From: a virus
Taxonomy: Duplodnaviria; Heunggongvirae; Uroviricota; Caudoviricetes
DNA length: 28,428 nt
IMG/VR virus record: IMGVR_UViG_2534682139_000012
Reading direction: 5' to 3' (one strand)
In this document: piece by piece, positions 6,920 through 22,826 of the stretch
Position numbering within the stretch: the first letter of the stretch is position 1
Layout: each line of letters begins with the position of its first letter
Position numbers and translations under genes: made by a program
The notes under the pieces: generated by a model
What the model was told of the DNA's origin: nothing
Seen by the model: the letters and a program-made list of their open reading frames with translations, nothing else
Database searches by the model: none

Positions 6920-9756
6920 GTGAGTTTGCATGGAGCTGGAATGAACCACGGCCAGCCATTGATCCGGCCAGATTTACGGAGCACAGGCAGGAAACTGAAA
7001 CCGACCTGCAACGCGCCATCCGTTACTACCTTGAGGCGGACAAAAAGGCCCGGGAAGAACAGGAAGCGAAGGAGGAAGCCTTTTTCGCACAATCCGCCAT
7101 GGGTAAAAAACTCATGGCATCCCTTGAGGAAGCCGGACAGCGTGAAAAGCTGGCACAGAGCATCATCAGTAAGCGCCGGGCAACAGAACAAGACCCGGTG
7201 GCCCGTGCCTTTGCCACACTGAAGGCGCTTCCCGTTTATCTGCGAGAACCTCTGAGCCGCCACCTCTCTTTCCTGCGCAAGAAGCAGGAAGCCGATCGTC
7301 AGAAAGGCAAAAAGAGCTGGCAGGCGGAACGCTATGCACGCGGAACCCTGCGCAAAATATTCGAACGTCTGGACCGCACCGACAGCCGCTGGCTGACACC
7401 GGGTTATCGCTCCCTTGCCGGACGCGAACGCCTGGACGATTTGCTTTACCTGCCGCAGCTCAACAAACACCAGATACAGACGCTGGCCACCATGACGGCG
7501 GCGATGTTCAGCAGCACCTTCGAAAAACTCTGCGATGGCTTTGGCGCGACTGATGGCGAACTGACCATGGATGTAACGCTGAAGGCGTATCAGATGCTGG
7601 CCCGCATGGCGTTACACCTGCACGCCATGCCTCCACATTATGACGCACTGACAACAGACAAAGACCGGAGGAACGAACCGGACACGGAGCTGCTGCCGGG
7701 CGCAATCCTTCGCCTGACCTGTGCGGAATGGTGGAAACGCAAACTGTGGCTGTTACGTTGCGAGTGGAGAGAAGAACAACTCCGCGCCGCCTGTCTGGTT
7801 TCCAGAAAAACATCACCCTATCTGAGCCAGGACGCGTTAAGCGAGTTTCGCGCACAGCGCGAGAAAACACGCGATTTCCTGAAAAGTTTTATGCTGGAAA
7901 ACGAAGACGGGTTCACGATTGATCTCGAAACAGTGTATTACGCGGGAGTAAGTAACCCGGTTCACCGTAAGGCAGAAATGATGGCCACCATGAAGGGGCT
8001 GGAACTTCTGGCCGAAGCCCGTGGCGACAAAGCGGTGTTTCTGACTGTCACCTGCCCGTCAAAATACCACGCCACAACAGAGAACGGTCATCCGAATCCC
8101 AAATGGAACGGAGCCACCATGCGCGACTCCAGCGATTACCTGGTTAACACGTTTTTTGCGGCGGTCCGCAAGAAACTGAACCGCGACGGCCTGCGCTGGT
8201 ATGGCATCCGCACGGTGGAGCCTCACCATGACGGCACCGTGCACTGGCATATGATGGTCTTTGCTCATCCGGAAGAAATCGACACCATTGTGTCCCACAC
8301 CCGCGATATTGCCATTCAGGAAGATCGTCACGAGCTGGGTGATGATATTACCCCACGCTTTAAGGCGGAGTACGTCGACGGCTCAAAAGGTACGCCAACC
8401 AGCTACATCGCCACCTACATCGGAAAGAACCTAGACAGCCGCGCCGTGGATGGCATCGACCCGAAAACGGGCAAGCCACGCGTTGACCACGAAACCGGAA
8501 AATCAATGGCCGAGAGCGTGGAACGCGCCATCGGCTGGGCGCGCCTTCACCGTGTCCGCCAGTTCCAGTTCTTTGGTATCCCCTCCCGTCAGGTGTGGCG
8601 TGAACTCCGCCGCCTTGCCAGCCAGATGGCACGCAACCCGGAAGGCCCGCAACGGCTGAAGGATGACGCAATGGATGCGGTACTCGCTGCCGCTGATGCC
8701 GGATGTTTTGCCACCTACATAGAGAAACAGGGCGGCGTACTTGTTCCACGCAAAGACTACCTGATTCGCACCGCCTACGACCTCGCAGATGAGCTGAACG
8801 ATTACGGCGAACAGAGTGTACAGATTTACGGGATCTGGTCGCCGCTCATCGGGGAATCCTCCCGTGTGTGCACGCATCCGGATAACTGGAAGCTGGTAAG
8901 ACGTAAACCGGAAGCGGAAGACAGCGCCCGCGAAAATGGTTTTGACCTTCAGGGCGGCCCTGCCGCCCCTTGGACTCGTGGCAATAACTGTCCCCGTGTA
9001 CAGGAAACGGACAACAACGGGACAGAACAGCCGGAAGAACGGCCAGCACCGTGGCCGCAGCTTCCTGACGGCGTTGATGTGGATGAATGGGTGCGCTCAC
9101 TGAAACGGCACGAACGCCGGGCGCTGATGCGTTCGCTTCGTGACAAACAGGCAAAAAACAGCAGTGATGAAATGCAGAGCTGGACACAGAGCCGCAAACA
9201 GCAGCGGCCTTTGCCTGATAACCACGAATTACTCGCTAGAGAATGGCGGGAGTCTGCTGAATCTCTCGGCCTGCATATCGGTGAACAACAAATGCAGCAC
9301 CTGTTACGGGGCGGCAGTCTGTACGTTGACGGCAGCATCATTGCACCGCAGGGATTTGAAATTGTACGCAAACCGGATACCCGCCCGGACAGCCGAATCA
9401 CGCAGCTCTGGCAGCGCCTGAGCCGTAATCACGGTGTAAGCAGCACGGAGATCCGCCATAACCCGGTCGCCAGCTATCTGGCACAGCTGGGGGCATCAGA
9501 CCCTGAAGCCGCCACACGCCTGGCATCCACACTTCAGCAGGACCAGAACACCATGAAAACACCCGTTACCGTGCTTTCTGACATGCTGCGCGCCATCCGC
9601 GACGCAGAGCACGCACAGAGAATCAGTGAAACCACTGAACGTGCCCGCCGCAAAGCAGACCTGCTGCGGGGTGGCCTGACCAGTGGAAACAAAAAACAGA
9701 CAGAAACGGGATTCACAAATCCCGTAAATGAGCAAAAAACGCGCCGCGATATATGA
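6916..9756 (+). CDS. A: P2 gpA-like rolling-circle replication initiator (HUH endonuclease), with a long C-terminal extension
   Basis: HUH-like motif VHWHMMVFAHPEE and paired tyrosines in SYIATYIGKN; the 946 aa compare with about 760 aa recalled for P2 A; start chosen at the ATG coupled to the upstream stop. Confidence 0.85.
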   Translation: MSEFAWSWNEPRPAIDPARFTEHRQETETDLQRAIRYYLEADKKAREEQEAKEEAFFAQSAMGKKLMASLEEAGQREKLAQSIISKRRATEQDPVARAFATLKALPVYLREPLSRHLSFLRKKQEADRQKGKKSWQAERYARGTLRKIFERLDRTDSRWLTPGYRSLAGRERLDDLLYLPQLNKHQIQTLATMTAAMFSSTFEKLCDGFGATDGELTMDVTLKAYQMLARMALHLHAMPPHYDALTTDKDRRNEPDTELLPGAILRLTCAEWWKRKLWLLRCEWREEQLRAACLVSRKTSPYLSQDALSEFRAQREKTRDFLKSFMLENEDGFTIDLETVYYAGVSNPVHRKAEMMATMKGLELLAEARGDKAVFLTVTCPSKYHATTENGHPNPKWNGATMRDSSDYLVNTFFAAVRKKLNRDGLRWYGIRTVEPHHDGTVHWHMMVFAHPEEIDTIVSHTRDIAIQEDRHELGDDITPRFKAEYVDGSKGTPTSYIATYIGKNLDSRAVDGIDPKTGKPRVDHETGKSMAESVERAIGWARLHRVRQFQFFGIPSRQVWRELRRLASQMARNPEGPQRLKDDAMDAVLAAADAGCFATYIEKQGGVLVPRKDYLIRTAYDLADELNDYGEQSVQIYGIWSPLIGESSRVCTHPDNWKLVRRKPEAEDSARENGFDLQGGPAAPWTRGNNCPRVQETDNNGTEQPEERPAPWPQLPDGVDVDEWVRSLKRHERRALMRSLRDKQAKNSSDEMQSWTQSRKQQRPLPDNHELLAREWRESAESLGLHIGEQQMQHLLRGGSLYVDGSIIAPQGFEIVRKPDTRPDSRITQLWQRLSRNHGVSSTEIRHNPVASYLAQLGASDPEAATRLASTLQQDQNTMKTPVTVLSDMLRAIRDAEHAQRISETTERARRKADLLRGGLTSGNKKQTETGFTNPVNEQKTRRDI

Positions 9757-9801
9757 AGCGCACACAAAACAGGCAAAAACGGGATTTCAGAATCCCGTAA
9801 A
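9704..9801. repeat. Two copies of a 20-bp palindrome ACGGGATT-N4-AATCCCGT, 73 bp apart, upstream of parM; candidate ParR-binding centromere/operator
   Basis: Copy 1 at 9706-9725 (inside the 3' end of the A gene) and copy 2 at 9779-9798 (35 bp upstream of the parM ATG); flanks are also conserved (AAACGGGATT ... CCCGTAAA). Confidence 0.5.
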
Positions 9802-9832
9802 CGATTAATTAATCAACATAAGGAAAAGCGAC

Positions 9833-10792
9833 ATGAAAATTTGTATCGACGACGGCTCCACCAACATCAAGCTGGCATGGACTGAGAACAGCGAACGCCG
9901 CAACGCCATCAGCCCGAACAGCTTCAAGTCGGAATGGTCTGCGCCGTTCGGTGGCTCGCAGCCTGCGAACTACATGCTTGATGGCGTGCGCTATGGTTTT
10001 GATCCGGTCAGCGATCGCTTTGTCCAGACGACCGACACGCAATACCAGTACAGCGATGTGAATGTAATCGCCATTCACCACGCGCTGGTCAAATCAGGCA
10101 TCACACCACAGGAGGTGGATGTGGTTGTCACCCTGCCACTGAGCGAGTATTTCGACACAAACGCACAGCCGGACATGGCCAACATCAACCGCAAAAAAGC
10201 GAACGTTATGCGCCCGGTGGAGTACCAGAACGGCGAAGCATTCACTATCCGTAACGTGCGGGTTATGCCTGAATCCATTCCGGCTGGCTTTAAGGCACTG
10301 GCTGACATGAGTCCGTTTGAATCCCTGCTGATTGTGGATTTAGGCGGAACCACGCTGGATGTGGCAAAGGTCCAGGGACAACTGGCAGGTATCAGCCAGG
10401 TGTTTTGCGATCCACACGTAGGCGTTTCCCTGATGGCCGATGCCGTACTGTCGGTGATGGCCACTAACGGTATGCGTACCAGTCACCACATCGCCAATAC
10501 CATTATCGAACATCGCCATGATGAAGCCTGGTTGCGCCAACACATCCACAATGACGCGCATTACGCCAGCCTGATGGCGGTTATTCGTGAAAAGGAAGAA
10601 ACACTGAAACAACGCGTGATCCGCGCGCTGGCGGGTTTTTCGGGTTACGGACGGGTGATGGTTGTCGGTGGCGGGGCGGAGATTGTGGCACCCGCTATCC
10701 GCGAAGCCTGCGGAGTTAATGCGACTTTCATCGCGGACGGGGTGCCACAGTTTGCTCTGGTTAATGGGCTGTACGCAATGGACAAGGAGTAA
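9833..10792 (+). CDS. parM: ParM/StbA-family actin-like segregation ATPase
   Basis: N-terminus MKICIDDGSTNIKLAW ... SPNSFKSEW ... YSDVNVIAIHHAL closely resembles plasmid R1 ParM (MLVFIDDGSTNIKLQW ... SPNSFKREW ... YSDVNVVAVHHAL). Confidence 0.85.
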   Translation: MKICIDDGSTNIKLAWTENSERRNAISPNSFKSEWSAPFGGSQPANYMLDGVRYGFDPVSDRFVQTTDTQYQYSDVNVIAIHHALVKSGITPQEVDVVVTLPLSEYFDTNAQPDMANINRKKANVMRPVEYQNGEAFTIRNVRVMPESIPAGFKALADMSPFESLLIVDLGGTTLDVAKVQGQLAGISQVFCDPHVGVSLMADAVLSVMATNGMRTSHHIANTIIEHRHDEAWLRQHIHNDAHYASLMAVIREKEETLKQRVIRALAGFSGYGRVMVVGGGAEIVAPAIREACGVNATFIADGVPQFALVNGLYAMDKE

Positions 10793-10796
10793 ACCA

Positions 10797-11108
10797 ATGA
10801 CGACACCAACCAGACGGATAAGTTTCTATCTGAAGCCCGCCGCCGTCAAGAACGAAGGCGAAGCATGCGCCTGGCTGGACAGCCTTACACCAGAAGCCCG
10901 CAAAAGCGGCCAACGTGTGGCTTTTCTGGCCGGGCTGGCACTTCTGAAAATGAATCCGGCAGAGGCTTACCGACTGGCTGCATGGGCTGATGATGAAGCG
11001 TTATCAGTGACACAAACCAGGACAGAACGCCCCGCATCACAGCCAGTATCAACCGCACAGATAACCAGTCAGATGGCCGGAAATATCCGGGCGTTATTTC
11101 CTGAATAA
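10797..11108 (+). CDS. parR: ParR-like partition adaptor (DNA-binding partner of ParM)
   Basis: MTTPTRRISFYLKPAAV ... LDSLTPEARKSGQRVAFLAGLAL resembles R1 ParR (RRTIAFKLNPD ... LDSIPQGERSRLNRAALTAGLAL); RBS AAGGAG; directly follows parM. Confidence 0.6.
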   Translation: MTTPTRRISFYLKPAAVKNEGEACAWLDSLTPEARKSGQRVAFLAGLALLKMNPAEAYRLAAWADDEALSVTQTRTERPASQPVSTAQITSQMAGNIRALFPE

Positions 11109-11171
11109 CACAACATCAGGGCGAGTTCGCCCTGCTCTCCACCTCAGAACATAAACAAGGAGAACGACTTA

Positions 11172-11507
11172 ATGAGCGAAATCAACTATCAGGCATTACG
11201 TGAACGTTATTCACCTGTGCCAGTACCGAAATGCCCTATTTGCGGCGAGGAAATGTCAATTCAGCGAATATCTGGAGCACAGGTTGTTTATGCCTGCTCC
11301 GGTTATGGTGATGATGGAGATTTCAAAATTGGCCGAACTCTTGCCGACGAACATTATGAAAAATCACACGTAACAGTGTTGGATGTCGGGATCCTGAAGT
11401 ATTGGCGCTACTTGATTGGCTGGAAACCAAAGACAACCGAATCGCTGAACTGGAAAAAATCGCCACTGACTATGCACTTAAATTCCAGAAAGCACAGGAC
11501 GCATTAA
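11172..11507 (+). CDS. Hypothetical protein with a CxxC pair (possible zinc-ribbon); may be frame-disrupted
   Basis: CPICGEEM ... YACSGYGDDG in the N-terminus; an overlapping frame (11360-11554) encodes a coiled-coil-like tail (LALLDWLETKDNRIAELEKIATDYALKFQKAQDALKYAALL) with no start codon of its own. Confidence 0.4.
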   Translation: MSEINYQALRERYSPVPVPKCPICGEEMSIQRISGAQVVYACSGYGDDGDFKIGRTLADEHYEKSHVTVLDVGILKYWRYLIGWKPKTTESLNWKKSPLTMHLNSRKHRTH

Positions 11508-11644
11508 AGTACGCCGCTTTGCTGCATAGCAGGACAGCGCAGCTAAAATACTAACTTAAAGCGGAAGATTAATACATGGTGAGTCGGGGTAATTTGTTTT
11601 TATCCCAACAAATAAACAAAAAAGTGGACTATCTCTGTAGTATC

Positions 11645-12175
11645 TTATTCAGCATCGTCTCGTGCAGTCTGTGCATACGTCACAACAACGCCCAATGCAT
11701 TAGTTTTCTTTTCAACATAGATAATATTGTCATATTCATAGTTACCATACGGATAGCAAATAAGAATATTTTTATGCAGTTCGGGATCATCAACAAACGC
11801 TCCGGAACAGCTTCTTGAACTACCAGATGTATACTCATACGGTGCAACATATGATGATGTTACTCCTGGTAAAAAATAAGTCACCATCATAAGAGGGATA
11901 ATCAGGAATATCCCTGTAAGAATGCAAGAGCCAGCATAAACCTTCAGGTATTCCGACAGTCCTTTCCAGCCACTTTGCTTCACTACCCCCCTCTTCACCA
12001 GAAACAAGGAGAAGAAAAAGGACATACCCATACTACACAAGATGTAATAATTGGATATACGCGAATTAAGATATGTAATCCTGTAGATATCTGCCCTCCA
12101 CCAGTAAAAGAGGAAAATAATCCCTAGCACTGAAACAGTCATGCAAATCAAATAAGGATATGAATCTTTCTTCAT
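11645..12175 (-). CDS. AT-rich integral membrane protein of unknown function at the P2 tin/old-equivalent position
   Basis: 176-aa ORF with three or four hydrophobic helices and a Tyr-rich C-terminal domain; markedly AT-rich and opposite in strand to the flanking phage genes. Confidence 0.6.
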   Translation of the reverse strand: MKKDSYPYLICMTVSVLGIIFLFYWWRADIYRITYLNSRISNYYILCSMGMSFFFSLFLVKRGVVKQSGWKGLSEYLKVYAGSCILTGIFLIIPLMMVTYFLPGVTSSYVAPYEYTSGSSRSCSGAFVDDPELHKNILICYPYGNYEYDNIIYVEKKTNALGVVVTYAQTARDDAE

Positions 12176-12654
12176 GTCTTGCGCCCATTAAAATTTCCCT
12201 GCTACGAACAAATTTACCATCCGTTTTTTGCGCAGAAAACAGCACGATGCACACTGCACGATAGTGCACAAATTTGCACAATTTTTTTGAACGACTTTTT
12301 GCCCTTCCGGCCCCCGTGGCGGCTGGATCCGTCAAGGATCCGTGCGTGCACAAAAAAACGCGTTTTTTCTGCGCGCAGGTGACGGGGGAACAGCCCGCGT
12401 TTCAGGGGGTAAATAGCATTCCCTGAACGATGTCGCAGAGATACAACAGAATGGCTGTATTTCTCACGCTGAGCGTGAAAAAGACGTGAGGGCTTTTGAT
12501 TTGATGGGGTGAAAGGTAAGGCCGTCAAAATCGCACTGAGACGGCGAGAACATGCAGTCAACGCGGTGGGATTGCGTAAGAGTCTGACTGTCGATGATGG
12601 CAATCAGCAGGAAAGCGTCGTGAAATTATCTGACTGATACAGGAGCTGGAGAGT

Positions 12655-12679
12655 CGGGGCATAAATTTTTTATGCCCCG
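12655..12679. other. Perfect 11-bp-stem palindrome CGGGGCATAAA-ttt-TTTATGCCCCG just downstream of the portal gene (candidate terminator or packaging-region site)
   Basis: Read directly; lies in the 530-bp intergenic region where cos is expected by P2 synteny. Confidence 0.4.
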
Positions 12680-12705
12680 GCGAAGCAGCAGACAAGCGAA
12701 GCGCG

Positions 12706-13752
12706 TCAGGATGTGGGCTGGGTGTCTAACAGTGCGTAAGGGTTAAAGCGGATCACCTCTTCCCCAAGCCAGTCATTGATGTGCTTCATGGCCTCCATGA
12801 CGGGCATCAGCTCGTTAATTGCGTAAACCCGCGCGGCCTTCTCCACATCACCAAACGCACTTTTTTCGCCCGGCATCGCCCCCATCAGTTGCGGCGGAAC
12901 GCGGTGCGCAGCCAGCACATCATCACGGGATGCCGCCTTAACATTCATGAACTCATCCTTTGCGGTGATCTGCTGGAACGGCAAAATTTGCACCCCCTCT
13001 TTGCCCCCGTTGGGCGCATGGATGAGCACGTTTTTAAACGCGCCACCACCACGCGCACCCTGTAACGTTTCTTTCAGGGAGTCCATGCTTTCGCGGTTTA
13101 CCTGCGCTGCACCGATGTAGATGATGCACCCGGCGTGGGATCCATTGTCGTAATACAGTTTTCTGAACATGTCCGCCGAATGAGACAGGCTGGCCGAGAG
13201 TAATGCGCCAAGATATTCCGGCATGCCGTAAATTTCCTGGTTAATATCCGGATTCATTAGGTGGCACACTTTGCCAGGGCGAAACTGGAACGCGTCCTTG
13301 CCATCCTGCACATACCACCATGATTCAAGATCGCTTCCGCGTCGCATGTATTTCGCCAGTGCGTGCCGTAATTTAAGCGGTTCGCCGAGCATATTGCTTC
13401 TAAGCTCAAGGAATGCGTTACCGAACACAAACCAGTCCAGCGCCAGCGCCGAGAAATCCTGCCGGGAAAGCAGCGGGTGCGGGATGTAGCAACCGAGTAA
13501 TACATTGCGCTTAAAGTAAAGCGCAGACTGATGCCAGGACGTTTGCCGGGCTGCTCTTGCCAGACCGTACCAGTCCACCGGGGTTTCATACCACCGCCCG
13601 TTATCAGCACAGTACATATTGTCCAGCAGGTCATGCCCGGTCAGGCGATAAGGACCATCAAATGTGAATGCACTGAGCGATGATTCTTTCCTGAGCGCAT
13701 CAGCGAGATCAATGCGTGAACTCATGCGCACTTTTTTATTTTTTCTGCTCAT
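12706..13752 (-). CDS. Q: P2 gpQ-like portal protein
   Basis: 348 aa, position and orientation as in P2 (Q then P leftward, next to cos); length matches P2 Q (about 344 aa). Confidence 0.85.
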   Translation of the reverse strand: MSRKNKKVRMSSRIDLADALRKESSLSAFTFDGPYRLTGHDLLDNMYCADNGRWYETPVDWYGLARAARQTSWHQSALYFKRNVLLGCYIPHPLLSRQDFSALALDWFVFGNAFLELRSNMLGEPLKLRHALAKYMRRGSDLESWWYVQDGKDAFQFRPGKVCHLMNPDINQEIYGMPEYLGALLSASLSHSADMFRKLYYDNGSHAGCIIYIGAAQVNRESMDSLKETLQGARGGGAFKNVLIHAPNGGKEGVQILPFQQITAKDEFMNVKAASRDDVLAAHRVPPQLMGAMPGEKSAFGDVEKAARVYAINELMPVMEAMKHINDWLGEEVIRFNPYALLDTQPTS

Positions 13753-20319: not shown

Positions 20320-20461
20320 CCCACCCACATGGGGAAACCTCGGAATATGGGGCGACCGCCTTCTGGATGCACTGGAAACCTGTAACGCGGATAAACGGGC
20401 CATTGCTGAACTGGATAAGAGAATAGCCGAACTGACACACCAGACGGGAGTAACACAATGA
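20180..20461 (+). CDS. Rz1-like outer-membrane lipoprotein spanin (LysC position), overlapping the Rz-like gene in the +1 frame
   Basis: Lipobox LVLLTGC and a Pro-rich body (PVTPPPFPDPP); start could instead be 20150. Confidence 0.55.
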   Translation: MNAPTLCLTLVLLTGCAGTQNAPGPAPSVRLIPQTLTMPVTPPPFPDPPTWGNLGIWGDRLLDALETCNADKRAIAELDKRIAELTHQTGVTQ

Positions 20462-22335
20462 CCAGTAAGAACTTTGCACTGATTACAGCCATGACACAGG
20501 CTGAACTGACTCAAAAGGTGAATGAACATCTTGCGAAAGGGTGGCATCTTCAGGGGGAGACGCGGGTTGCCTACGAACCCGGCACCCCGTGGTATCTAAT
20601 GCAGGCAATGGTGGCCGATGGCACTACAGACATCTCACCTGATTCCCCCCAGCACGGCAGCGTGCCGGAGTGGTATTACGTGGTGGTACTTGCTGGTCAA
20701 TCCAATGCCATGTCATATGGTGAGGGAATGCCGCTGCCGGATTCTTACGATGCGCCCCACCCACGCATTAAGCAACTGGCCCGTCGCAACACAGTGACTC
20801 CCGGTGGTAAAGCATGCGCATTTAACGACATCATTCCGGCAGACCACTGCCTGCATGATGTTCAGGATATGAGCGCACTGAATCACCCGAATGCAGACCT
20901 GAGCAAAGGGCAGTATGGCTGTGTCGGACAGGGCTTGCATATTGCCAAACGCCTGTTGCCTTACATTCCACAGAATGCCGGGATTTTACTGGTTCCATGC
21001 TGTCGTGGTGGTTCGGCATTCACCCAGGGCGCGGAGGGGACATTCAGCGAGTCCACAGGAGCCAGTCAGGATTCGGCTCGCTGGGGTGTGGGTAAACCTT
21101 TATATCAGGACCTGATTTTGCGCACGAAGGCCGCATTGCAGAAAAACCCAAAAAACATGCTGCTGGCCGTATGCTGGATGCAGGGCGAATTTGACATGAG
21201 CGCCGCTACGTACTCACAGCAACCTCCGCTGTTTACGGCCATGCTGAAACAGTTTCGTGCGGACATTACCGAGTTTAACACGCAGTGTCATGGAGGCAGA
21301 GCGGCAAGTGTGCCATGGATTTGTGGTGACACGACGTATTACTGGAAAAACACCTACGGCACGCAGTACGACACCATTTACGGGGCGTACAAAAACAGGG
21401 AGAGCGACAACGTTTTCTTTGTGCCGTTCCTGACCGATGGTAGTGGCAACAATACCTCCACCAACGCACCAACGGAAGATCCGGATGCTGCAAGTGAGGG
21501 ATATTACGGTTCGGCATCCCGAACGAACAAAAACTGGGTATCATCAAATCGCCAGACGCATTTCAGCTCATGGGCGCGTCGTGGCATTATTCCCGATCGT
21601 ATGGCAACCGCTATTCTGAACGTAGCCGGTCGCACCTTAGCCTTCATCAGTGGTAAGGCACCGGAAATCAAACCCTCGCCCGGCGGCGACACGCCATCGG
21701 GGCCGTCTGAAGATGCATCCGTACGCACAATCTCCCTGTTGCCGACAGCCGGAGATGCTGCTGCGCAGGGCTGGAGCATTAAGAATGGCGGAATTCAGTT
21801 GTCAGAGGGTGTATTTAAGATCACCAAGCAGAGCAATAAAGCCTGGTCCCTGACGCGCCCGGTGGATGACGCAGTCTCCCTGCTGACACGGGGTGGCAGA
21901 CTGAGCTGTAAGTTTCGACTGTCAGGCGCACTGACCAACAATCAGTTCGGTCTGGGAATTTATCTGTATACCGATGTAGCGTTACCTGACGTCGTGGCGA
22001 TGACCGGGACTGGTAACCCGTTCCTGATGTCGTTCTTCACCCAGACCACAGACGGCAAACTGAATCTGATGCATCACAAGAAAGCAGGAAACACAAAGTT
22101 GGGCGAGTTCGGGAATTACAGTAACGACTGGCAGACGCTGGAGCTGGTGTTCACCGCCGGCAGTGCCACGGTTACTCCGAAACTGAATGGAGTGGCTGGC
22201 CCGGCATTCCAGGTCATAAAAGACAGTCTGACACTGGGGCTGAATGCGCTGACGTTAACTGATATCACTAAAAATGCCGCGTACGGCGTCGATATCGGCA
22301 GCCTGGTGCTGGAAATCAATAATCCCGCAGCATAA
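20458..22335 (+). CDS. NanS-like sialate O-acetylesterase family protein (SGNH/SASA domain with an N-terminal DUF1737-like domain); moron between the lysis cassette and tail genes
   Basis: N-terminus MTSKNFALITAMTQAELTQKVNEHLAKGWHLQGE; SASA-type active-site block VVVLAGQSNAMSYGEG; 625 aa; this slot is absent from canonical P2 between lysC and R. Confidence 0.65.
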   Translation: MTSKNFALITAMTQAELTQKVNEHLAKGWHLQGETRVAYEPGTPWYLMQAMVADGTTDISPDSPQHGSVPEWYYVVVLAGQSNAMSYGEGMPLPDSYDAPHPRIKQLARRNTVTPGGKACAFNDIIPADHCLHDVQDMSALNHPNADLSKGQYGCVGQGLHIAKRLLPYIPQNAGILLVPCCRGGSAFTQGAEGTFSESTGASQDSARWGVGKPLYQDLILRTKAALQKNPKNMLLAVCWMQGEFDMSAATYSQQPPLFTAMLKQFRADITEFNTQCHGGRAASVPWICGDTTYYWKNTYGTQYDTIYGAYKNRESDNVFFVPFLTDGSGNNTSTNAPTEDPDAASEGYYGSASRTNKNWVSSNRQTHFSSWARRGIIPDRMATAILNVAGRTLAFISGKAPEIKPSPGGDTPSGPSEDASVRTISLLPTAGDAAAQGWSIKNGGIQLSEGVFKITKQSNKAWSLTRPVDDAVSLLTRGGRLSCKFRLSGALTNNQFGLGIYLYTDVALPDVVAMTGTGNPFLMSFFTQTTDGKLNLMHHKKAGNTKLGEFGNYSNDWQTLELVFTAGSATVTPKLNGVAGPAFQVIKDSLTLGLNALTLTDITKNAAYGVDIGSLVLEINNPAA

Positions 22336-22358
22336 GGAAGAGCAGGAGAGCAAAACAG

Positions 22359-22826
22359 ATGCTTAAGACAAACAGTCTGCGAGAGTCCATGCTTCATGGG
22401 TGTCGGTGGTGCCAGGCTAATCCCGAGAAATTCACCATTTTCGTGGAGAGCGGCAACATTGAAACGACCGGAGAAGCGCCCTCGTTTGTTTACCGCTATC
22501 AGATGGTGATGTTTGTCATGGATTACGCCGGAGAGCTGGACGACCTCACGCTGCCGCTGCTGGCGTGGTTATCCGAAAATCAGCCACAGTTGTTGCTCAA
22601 TCCGGAGCGTAATCAGGACATCAAATTTTCTGCCGTTATCAATGACGATGACAGCGCCGATCTCCTGTTTACGCTCCCCCTGCGGGAACGCGTTCGCATC
22701 ACGCGCAACAGTCAGGGCACACCGCAGGCAGAACACCTGCCGGAGCCAAAACCCCGTCTGCCTTCTTCCGAAGGCGACTGGTCGCATGTATTCCAGGATG
22801 TGACGTGGGGTGAAAGCGATGGATAA
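22359..22826 (+). CDS. R: P2 gpR-like tail completion protein
   Basis: 155 aa, the same length as recalled for P2 R; synteny. Confidence 0.8.
   Translation: MLKTNSLRESMLHGCRWCQANPEKFTIFVESGNIETTGEAPSFVYRYQMVMFVMDYAGELDDLTLPLLAWLSENQPQLLLNPERNQDIKFSAVINDDDSADLLFTLPLRERVRITRNSQGTPQAEHLPEPKPRLPSSEGDWSHVFQDVTWGESDG

Follow-up and report, generated by a model that had tools for sequence, protein, structure and literature searches.

A probable ParMRC partition cassette in the backbone of P88-like phages of the P2 family

The window analysed here, a stretch of 28,428 nucleotides (nt) from a tailed phage (IMG/VR record IMGVR_UViG_2534682139_000012), contains a P2-like prophage in which the genes of an actin-like ParM and of a putative adaptor protein, ParR, directly follow the replication gene gpA. 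From the sequences and by analogy with characterized systems, we consider it fairly probable that these two genes, together with a pair of palindromes lying ahead of them, constitute a functional type II (ParMRC) partition cassette which belongs to the backbone of P88-like phages and moves replicating extrachromosomal phage circles. The first-pass annotation of this DNA had recognized, in a P2-like prophage, a ParM and a ParR placed immediately behind the replication gene, and matches to Pfam, PHROG and solved structures confirm this part of it. The features on which the argument is built are the following (window coordinates):

6889-9756, plus strand: gpA, P2-type rolling-circle replication endonuclease (Phage_GPA, 1.9e-131)
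9706-9725: candidate parC site 1, 20-bp palindrome ACGGGATTCACAAATCCCGT, within the last codons of gpA
9779-9798: candidate parC site 2, 20-bp palindrome ACGGGATTTCAGAATCCCGT, intergenic, 34 nt 5' of the parM ATG
9833-10792, plus strand: parM, actin-like ATPase of 319 residues (StbA_N and ParM C-terminal domain)
10797-11108, plus strand: parR, putative centromere-binding adaptor of 103 residues (PF10784, PHROG 2515)

Results

ParM and its nucleotide-binding motifs

The parM open reading frame (ORF) covers two Pfam domains over their full length, StbA_N (7.9e-82) and the ParM C-terminal domain (1.3e-68), and it also matches PHROG 691, described as 'partition protein'. A scan against NCBIfam returned only sub-threshold hits for ParM. 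Crystal chains of the ParM of plasmid R1 (1mwk) align with the phage protein from end to end, over 316 residues (E = 2e-92), and the identity between the two proteins is 46% by BLASTP. A defect in the ATPase motifs had been named in the first-pass annotation as an observation that would refute its interpretation. All of these motifs are intact and stand at the R1 positions: DDGST (position 6), PESIPAG (146), DLGGTT (169) and GGGA (279), which cover the phosphate-1, connect, phosphate-2 and adenosine elements of an actin-fold ATPase. The four motifs are invariant across the aligned phage-borne homologues (n = 14, down to 53% identity). The gene is preceded, at a distance of 7 nt, by the ribosome-binding site AAGGA. 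Over 93 distinct E. coli-type alleles the ratio of non-synonymous to synonymous substitution rates (dN/dS) of parM is 0.07, and a parM of 319 residues is retained in 154 of the 164 phage-type loci.

ParR, a small adaptor with a conserved tip

Only 4 nt separate the stop codon of parM from the start of parR, which has the motif AAGGAG 8 nt upstream. The parR start is an ATG; the mechanical list of ORFs gives instead a longer, TTG-started frame from position 10662. ParR matches the Pfam family Plasmid_stab_B (PF10784, 1.6e-24) and PHROG 2515, both over the full length. A single-sequence phmmer search of ParR against the PDB found nothing. With a profile built from 17 ParR homologues, the best match among solved structures was the ParR/StbB protein of plasmid pB171 (2jd3), residues 9-75 of the query being aligned with residues 11-76 of the chain, and this match is weak (E = 0.0022). 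The strand of a ribbon-helix-helix protein forms in the dimer only. The AlphaFold model of the ParR monomer was of low confidence (predicted local distance difference test score, pLDDT, of 56) and was left out of the fold search, so that it gives the ribbon-helix-helix fold no independent confirmation.

The layout of the protein comprises an N-terminal strand (RRISFYLKP) followed by helices, a hypervariable linker (residues 65-90 approximately) and a conserved C-terminal tip (NIRALFPE). Selection differs along this layout, with dN/dS values of 0.19 for the N-terminal domain (residues 1-64), 0.86 for the linker (residues 65-90) and 0.10 for the tip (residues 91-103). The tip motif N-[AI]-x-x-[LMF]-F-[PG] is common to phage and plasmid ParRs: it reads N-I-R/Q-A-L/F-F-P in the phages, and N-A-x-x-M/L-F-G/P at the C-termini of those plasmid ParRs which lie beside ParMs 46-53% identical to ours. 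In plasmid R1, the C-terminus of ParR is reportedly the part that docks on ParM. The pattern of selection on ParM and on the separate domains of ParR fits what would be expected of a working adaptor.

We observed two families of ParR alleles. Type A is that of the window, and type B, which reads ...SEREACSYLDSLPASERSRAQR..., is present in many IMG/VR loci. The two types have their first 17 codons or so and the C-terminal tip in common and are about 54-57% identical overall; both adjoin ParM genes that are 97-99% identical. In an E. albertii prophage, for instance, ParM is 99% and ParR 54% identical to the proteins of the window. These sequences suggest that recombination within parR lies behind the two families. 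We found no co-variation between the ParR allele type and the palindrome variant.

A candidate centromere at the end of gpA

Both candidate parC sites are perfect instances of ACGGGATT-N4-AATCCCGT, of which the window contains no further match even when 3 mismatches are allowed (0.14 expected). Each palindrome lies inside a 43-nt direct repeat, and the spacing is 73 nt. In about 155 E. coli-type loci both palindromes are retained, at positions -126 and -53 relative to the parM ATG, with single mismatches at most, and the variation falls mostly within the central 4-6 nt. Phages of Hafnia and Plesiomonas, the ParM of which is only 62% identical, exhibit a YGGG-N10-CCCR pair at the same offsets, with a spacing of 72-73 nt, in flanks that can no longer be aligned. 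A spacing of 72-73 bp corresponds to about 7 helical turns.

We scanned IMG/VR for the palindromes. All 39 loci with two palindromes contain parM as well as gpA, the distance of the sites from the parM start being at most 400 nt in 38 cases. Single matches with neither parM nor gpA were also found (40 cases), and they look like chance hits for a 14-base pattern. In one E. coli-type locus of IMG/VR, a single hybrid palindrome stands in place of the two, an arrangement consistent with the deletion of one 73-nt repeat unit through recombination between the sites.

The Serratia/Enterobacter lineage shows, upstream of parM, one long inverted repeat of 14-20 bp (GGGAACGAnAnAGAAAAAT) instead of the palindrome pair. 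The core of this repeat, ATTTTTCT, resembles the 11-bp-periodic iterons found upstream of parM in R1-clade plasmids. Seven Serratia and Enterobacter loci also have a longer ParR, of 133-134 residues, and HicAB or a KAP NTPase directly 3' of parR.

The palindromes were considered as terminators and rejected in this role. They are flagged as such on the minus strand only, where no gene reads in, and the stem of the Plesiomonas form is just 4 bp long with a loop of 10 nt. An Rfam scan of positions 9000-12800, with E up to 1, returned no RNA element. Protein-binding sites appear to be the better description. We infer that the palindrome pair is parC and possibly also an operator, site 2 being a possible autoregulatory operator.

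The cassette as part of the phage backbone

The order gpA-parM-parR-variable genes-portal is kept in prophages of Escherichia, Salmonella, Plesiomonas, Hafnia, Serratia and Enterobacter. In the last four genera it was followed over a longer distance: integrase, immunity genes, early genes, gpA, parM, parR, variable genes and portal succeed one another, with ParM identities to the window of 62% (Plesiomonas), 62% (Hafnia), 58% (Serratia) and 54% (Enterobacter). Among the 185 loci that we gathered, a gpA homologue is found upstream of every ParM at least 54% identical to that of the window and of none at 52% or below. Neighbours were read for two loci of the latter group, which turned out to be an element resembling an integrative and conjugative element (ICE) and a chromosomally integrated plasmid-like segment. 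In a neighbour-joining tree, drawn without bootstrap and from distances near saturation, the phage ParMs form one clade next to the R1 clade.

Downstream of parR, the conserved block ends. Two features mark this side of the cassette:

11117-11134: GC-rich hairpin CAGGGCGAGTTCGCCCTG, a stem-loop prediction just past the parR stop
12706-13752, minus strand: portal gene, the next backbone gene after the variable stretch

The hairpin is the right edge of the conserved block, the homology with P88-like phages stopping at query positions 1409-1435 (window 11108-11134). Within the 600 nt 3' of parR, at least 23 unrelated sequence clusters were counted among 135 loci. The GC content of parMR, 0.54-0.55, is that of the phage backbone, while the cargo beyond has 0.42-0.43.

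The position of the cassette, between gpA and the portal gene, is that of the gpA-gpQ interval, a known defence hotspot of these phages (PMC9122126, PMC13586616). The parMR pair could thus be accessory or moron cargo which serves the host, through some benefit, through defence or through exclusion by ParR/parC incompatibility, and has no role for phage DNA. The listing of the phiSM copy (ORF35) as a 'fitness' gene (PMC6456863) would agree with this idea, and the presence of up to three copies in one genome makes incompatibility effects conceivable. Nevertheless, cargo genes of a hotspot would be exchanged between otherwise similar phages, whereas parMR stays constant, always with gpA, and it is the segments following parR that vary. 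The cassette also has the base composition of the backbone and is conserved with the phage across genera. PADLOC gave no match for ParM, ParR or either of the two downstream ORFs, which speaks against a defence system, and the phage ParM is only 46-53% identical to plasmid ParMs, so that cross-reaction with resident plasmids is unlikely. We regard cargo as an unlikely explanation. The synteny and the substitution pattern instead identify parMR as phage backbone under purifying selection rather than the 'stabilization cargo' that the first-pass annotation had envisaged.

The same data bear on the idea that the cassette is a non-functional relic of an old recombination between a plasmid and a phage. 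The minimal centromere and the lack of a detected promoter could be read in this way, but the low dN/dS of parM, the proportion of intact ORFs (about 95%), the conservation of the ParR tip and DNA-binding domain while the linker varies, and the synteny down to 54% ParM identity all oppose it. The selection pattern effectively refutes this explanation, which is very improbable.

Distribution and residence of the cassette

A 1.5-kb segment spanning the cassette matches 1308 of the 5426 complete E. coli genomes (24%), with up to three copies per genome; 22 records match with an identity of at least 99%. The allele of the window is found, 100% identical, in at least 20 complete E. coli genomes, including O103, O45:H2 and O121 isolates. 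Fourteen phage records match at 94-98% DNA identity, among them P88, Citrobacter phage phiSM, PhiR44_2 and Xuanwuvirus P884B11, whose ParMs are 95-99% identical to that of the window. The Prokaryotic Genome Annotation Pipeline (PGAP) labels the two proteins 'plasmid segregation protein ParM' and 'plasmid partitioning/stability family protein', and Rousset et al. (2022, PMC9122126) noted a putative partition system in roughly one in four of the P2-like phages of E. coli. The earlier statement that such systems are not normally found in P2-type phages was thus too strong. In the common P88-like phages, the cassette belongs to the regular backbone and has been annotated before; it is neither rare nor new, and the copy of the window is an ordinary allele which nothing of substance sets apart from the other P88-like copies.

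Two further copies were seen under unexpected labels, one of P88 type and 97% identical in a contig of Vagococcus sp. WN89Y, the other of IncI type in a contig of a Lachnospiraceae metagenome-assembled genome. Such enterobacterial ParM loci in assemblies labelled as Firmicutes most likely result from contamination or mis-binning.

A plasmid-type cassette raises the question of whether these phages are phage-plasmids, living as low-copy plasmid prophages in the manner of P1 or N15, either facultatively or stably. This was proposed in the first-pass annotation and is also suggested by Rousset et al. (PMC9122126). Of the 1456 places located in the 5426 complete genomes of E. coli, 1454 are on the chromosome and the other 2 on plasmids. 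In PLSDB, 7 of 72,556 records match; six are large replicons or fragments and one is phage-sized. This last record, NZ_CP148288.1, is a circle of 34,461 bp deposited as an E. coli plasmid, and it consists of a whole P88-like phage with int, C/cox, gpA and parMR. It may be either an excised replicative form captured by the assembly or a rare episomal prophage. The search for circular relatives, proposed earlier as a check, thus yielded one phage-sized circle, and it is the sole one among the plasmids of this database.

Other strains carry phages of the NZ_CP148288.1 type in integrated form (99.8-99.9% identity). All sampled relatives whose sequence reaches the relevant end of the prophage have an integrase, and two sampled relatives lie in large contigs, one of them with a host gene next to the integrase. 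Phage-plasmids such as P1, N15 and SSU5 are characterized by extrachromosomal maintenance and a plasmid-type initiator with copy control, and usually lack an integrase. The early ORFs that were scanned, which represent a portion of the early genes, include none for a plasmid-type initiator, and the rolling-circle protein gpA is the sole replication function observed. The element does not look like a phage-plasmid of P1 or N15 type, a designation that these observations support poorly, and a standing plasmid lifestyle is rather unlikely in view of the preponderance of chromosomal copies; an episomal state that is rare or transient may nevertheless occur.

In the window itself, the integrase gene (770-1633, minus strand) is broken: only positions 2-69 of the 172-position catalytic domain remain, and the truncated gene is abutted by an ORF for an rve (IS3-type) transposase (1-888, plus strand). 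The disruption of int by an insertion sequence, which had been noted in the first-pass annotation, is therefore real. Alignment with the sibling prophage of NZ_CP027388.1, which has an intact integrase of 333 residues, begins at window position 928.

Other features of the window

The sibling genome is 100% identical over the 1.5-kb query, and its prophage is annotated as a complete P2-type prophage beside yecA. There, PGAP calls gpA a 'replication endonuclease' of 946 residues, which places the start codon near window position 6916. The protein is long (946-955 residues), and of this length the Pfam GPA domain accounts for residues 194-518 only. No family matches the C-terminal part, of some 240 residues, and the last 17 codons approximately hold the first palindrome. 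At this position, relatives have either a gpA of 785-907 residues or a separate ORF of 167 residues.

The low-GC region 3' of parR (11172-12700, 0.42-0.43) is the true variable hotspot of the window. It contains an N-terminal fragment of an Ead/Ea22-like gene (11172-11507), called a frameshifted pseudogene by PGAP in the sibling genome, and an ORF of 176 residues (11645-12175, minus strand) whose sole match is PHROG 1416, a family of unknown function, with no hit in PADLOC or NCBIfam. About 530 nt ahead of the portal gene are without an annotated gene.

A second difference from the sibling prophage, which is otherwise 99% identical, is a segment of about 2 kb (20406-22400) that the sibling lacks. 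This segment contains an ORF of 625 residues (20458-22335) with DUF1737, SASA (sialate O-acetylesterase) and DUF6645 domains. This is a gene for a NanS-p-like esterase, which has been inserted between the genes for lysis and those for the tail.

Discussion

Proposed role of the cassette

In the mechanism that we propose, the palindrome pair at the 3' end of gpA would be occupied by dimers of ParR. The conserved C-terminal tip of this protein would capture the ends of ATP-bound ParM filaments, and the growing filaments would push DNA molecules bearing parC apart. Since the cassette lies directly downstream of gpA in the same orientation and the phage is normally integrated, the cargo would be the replicating extrachromosomal circle, that is, the circular phage genomes which gpA would produce after infection or excision. 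P2 replication reportedly yields monomeric double-stranded circles, which serve as the packaging substrate. The distance between gpA and parM is 76 nt, and no plus-strand terminator is predicted between the two genes; infection or induction would thus lead to the synthesis of ParM and ParR along with the replication protein. The phage would benefit by keeping copies in both daughter cells, or by having its replicating circles spread for efficient replication and packaging.

Several points weigh against this proposal. For the copy of the window, the broken int makes excision by its own integrase unlikely, and this prophage is probably unable to leave the chromosome, irrespective of any activity of the cassette. 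More generally, a phage in a short lytic cycle would gain nothing obvious from segregation into daughter cells, and a repressed, non-replicating circle would leave a ParMRC system nothing to separate. Only two candidate sites are present, as compared with the ten iterons of R1, and the palindrome pair may be a mere operator. A scan for sigma-70 consensus promoters found none, so that the operator role, too, is only a possible one. Within the E. coli-type loci, the arms of the palindromes are not measurably more conserved than their flanks, a comparison that is uninformative because diversity is low everywhere in these loci. Finally, the searchable literature contains annotation-level remarks only, and no functional study of a ParMRC system of P88, Xuanwuvirus, Peduoviridae or other P2-family phages.

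Alternatively, the cassette of an integrated prophage could act upon the chromosome of the host, ParM pushing a chromosomal parC and affecting the segregation of that region. It is true that parC is chromosomal in lysogens, and ParMs encoded by chromosomes are known from other bacteria (PMC12270681). On the other hand, there is no evidence of expression in lysogens, and it is with the phage replication gene, not with any chromosomal site, that the cassette is syntenic. We give this explanation very little credence.

Going further than the action on replicating circles, a more speculative proposal is that P88-like phages have pared ParMRC down, with a two-palindrome centromere placed in the end of gpA, to a machine that positions virus genomes, either by spreading the monomeric genomes derived from rolling-circle replication during lytic growth or by carrying the phage as a transient plasmid through cell divisions, ahead of integration or following excision. 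We advance this as a tentative idea, which is possible and still doubtful. If it is true, one of the commonest groups of E. coli prophages would have a lifestyle that can be switched between the integrated and the episomal state.

A plasmid-type partition motor is thus carried, inside an integrated prophage, by roughly one in four complete E. coli genomes. The interest that remains lies in the function of such a motor in an integrating phage and in the unusually small candidate centromere, which would offer a very small natural centromere for study.

Comparison with known systems

The organization parC-parM-parR is that of the ParMRC system of plasmid R1, and the two ParMs are collinear over 316 residues with the same nucleotide-binding motifs; structures 1mwk and 4a62 of R1 ParM are available for comparison. 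The plasmid ParRs have a similar basic N-terminal strand (RRKIxFYLxP, as against RRISFYLKP in the phage), two helices, a linker and an N-A/I-x-x-hydrophobic-F tip; they differ in having an internal segment that is lacking in the shorter phage ParR. The carriers are different, a low-copy plasmid in one case and an integrating P2-family phage in the other. The centromeres are different too. R1 parC consists of ten 11-bp iterons arranged as two sets of five direct repeats (PMC2241845), and the R1-clade plasmid loci gathered here do show iterons with an 11-bp period, whereas the phages have two 20-bp palindromes 73 bp apart. The pB171 ParR/StbB protein, a ribbon-helix-helix centromere binder (2jd3), shares PF10784 with the phage ParR, although the similarity is weak and was detected by profile search only.

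For the way in which the phage cassette probably works, the closest analogue is SrpMRC, a type II locus that stabilizes excised, rolling-circle-replicating SXT/R391 ICEs as well as a delta-sop bacterial artificial chromosome (PMC4489591). These elements live integrated and replicate, by a rolling-circle (HUH-type) initiator, only while excised. The comparison rests on the layout of the phage locus, with its cassette close behind gpA in the same orientation and its lack of a predicted terminator. SXT/R391 elements are conjugative elements and not viruses, and SrpM and SrpR are distant from R1 ParM and ParR, to which the phage proteins are close.

The idea of a phage cytoskeleton is established for phiKZ-like phages. 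It also applies to an integrated prophage, CGP3 of Corynebacterium glutamicum, in which AlpAC and alpS comprise an actin-like filament former and a DNA-binding adaptor with specific sites. AlpAC is needed for efficient replication and transport of the viral DNA (PMC4446434; see also PMC5539076). AlpC is a divergent actin-like protein of an actinobacterial prophage and has no sequence-level relation to the R1-type cassette. Together, the precedents of SrpMRC and AlpAC make it reasonable to assign a circle-moving role to the cassette of P88-like phages. If the cassette does act on excised or replicating circles, it would extend to the P2 family both the notion that integrative elements also partition, as derived from SXT/R391 ICEs, and that of a phage cytoskeleton, as derived from CGP3 and phiKZ-like phages.

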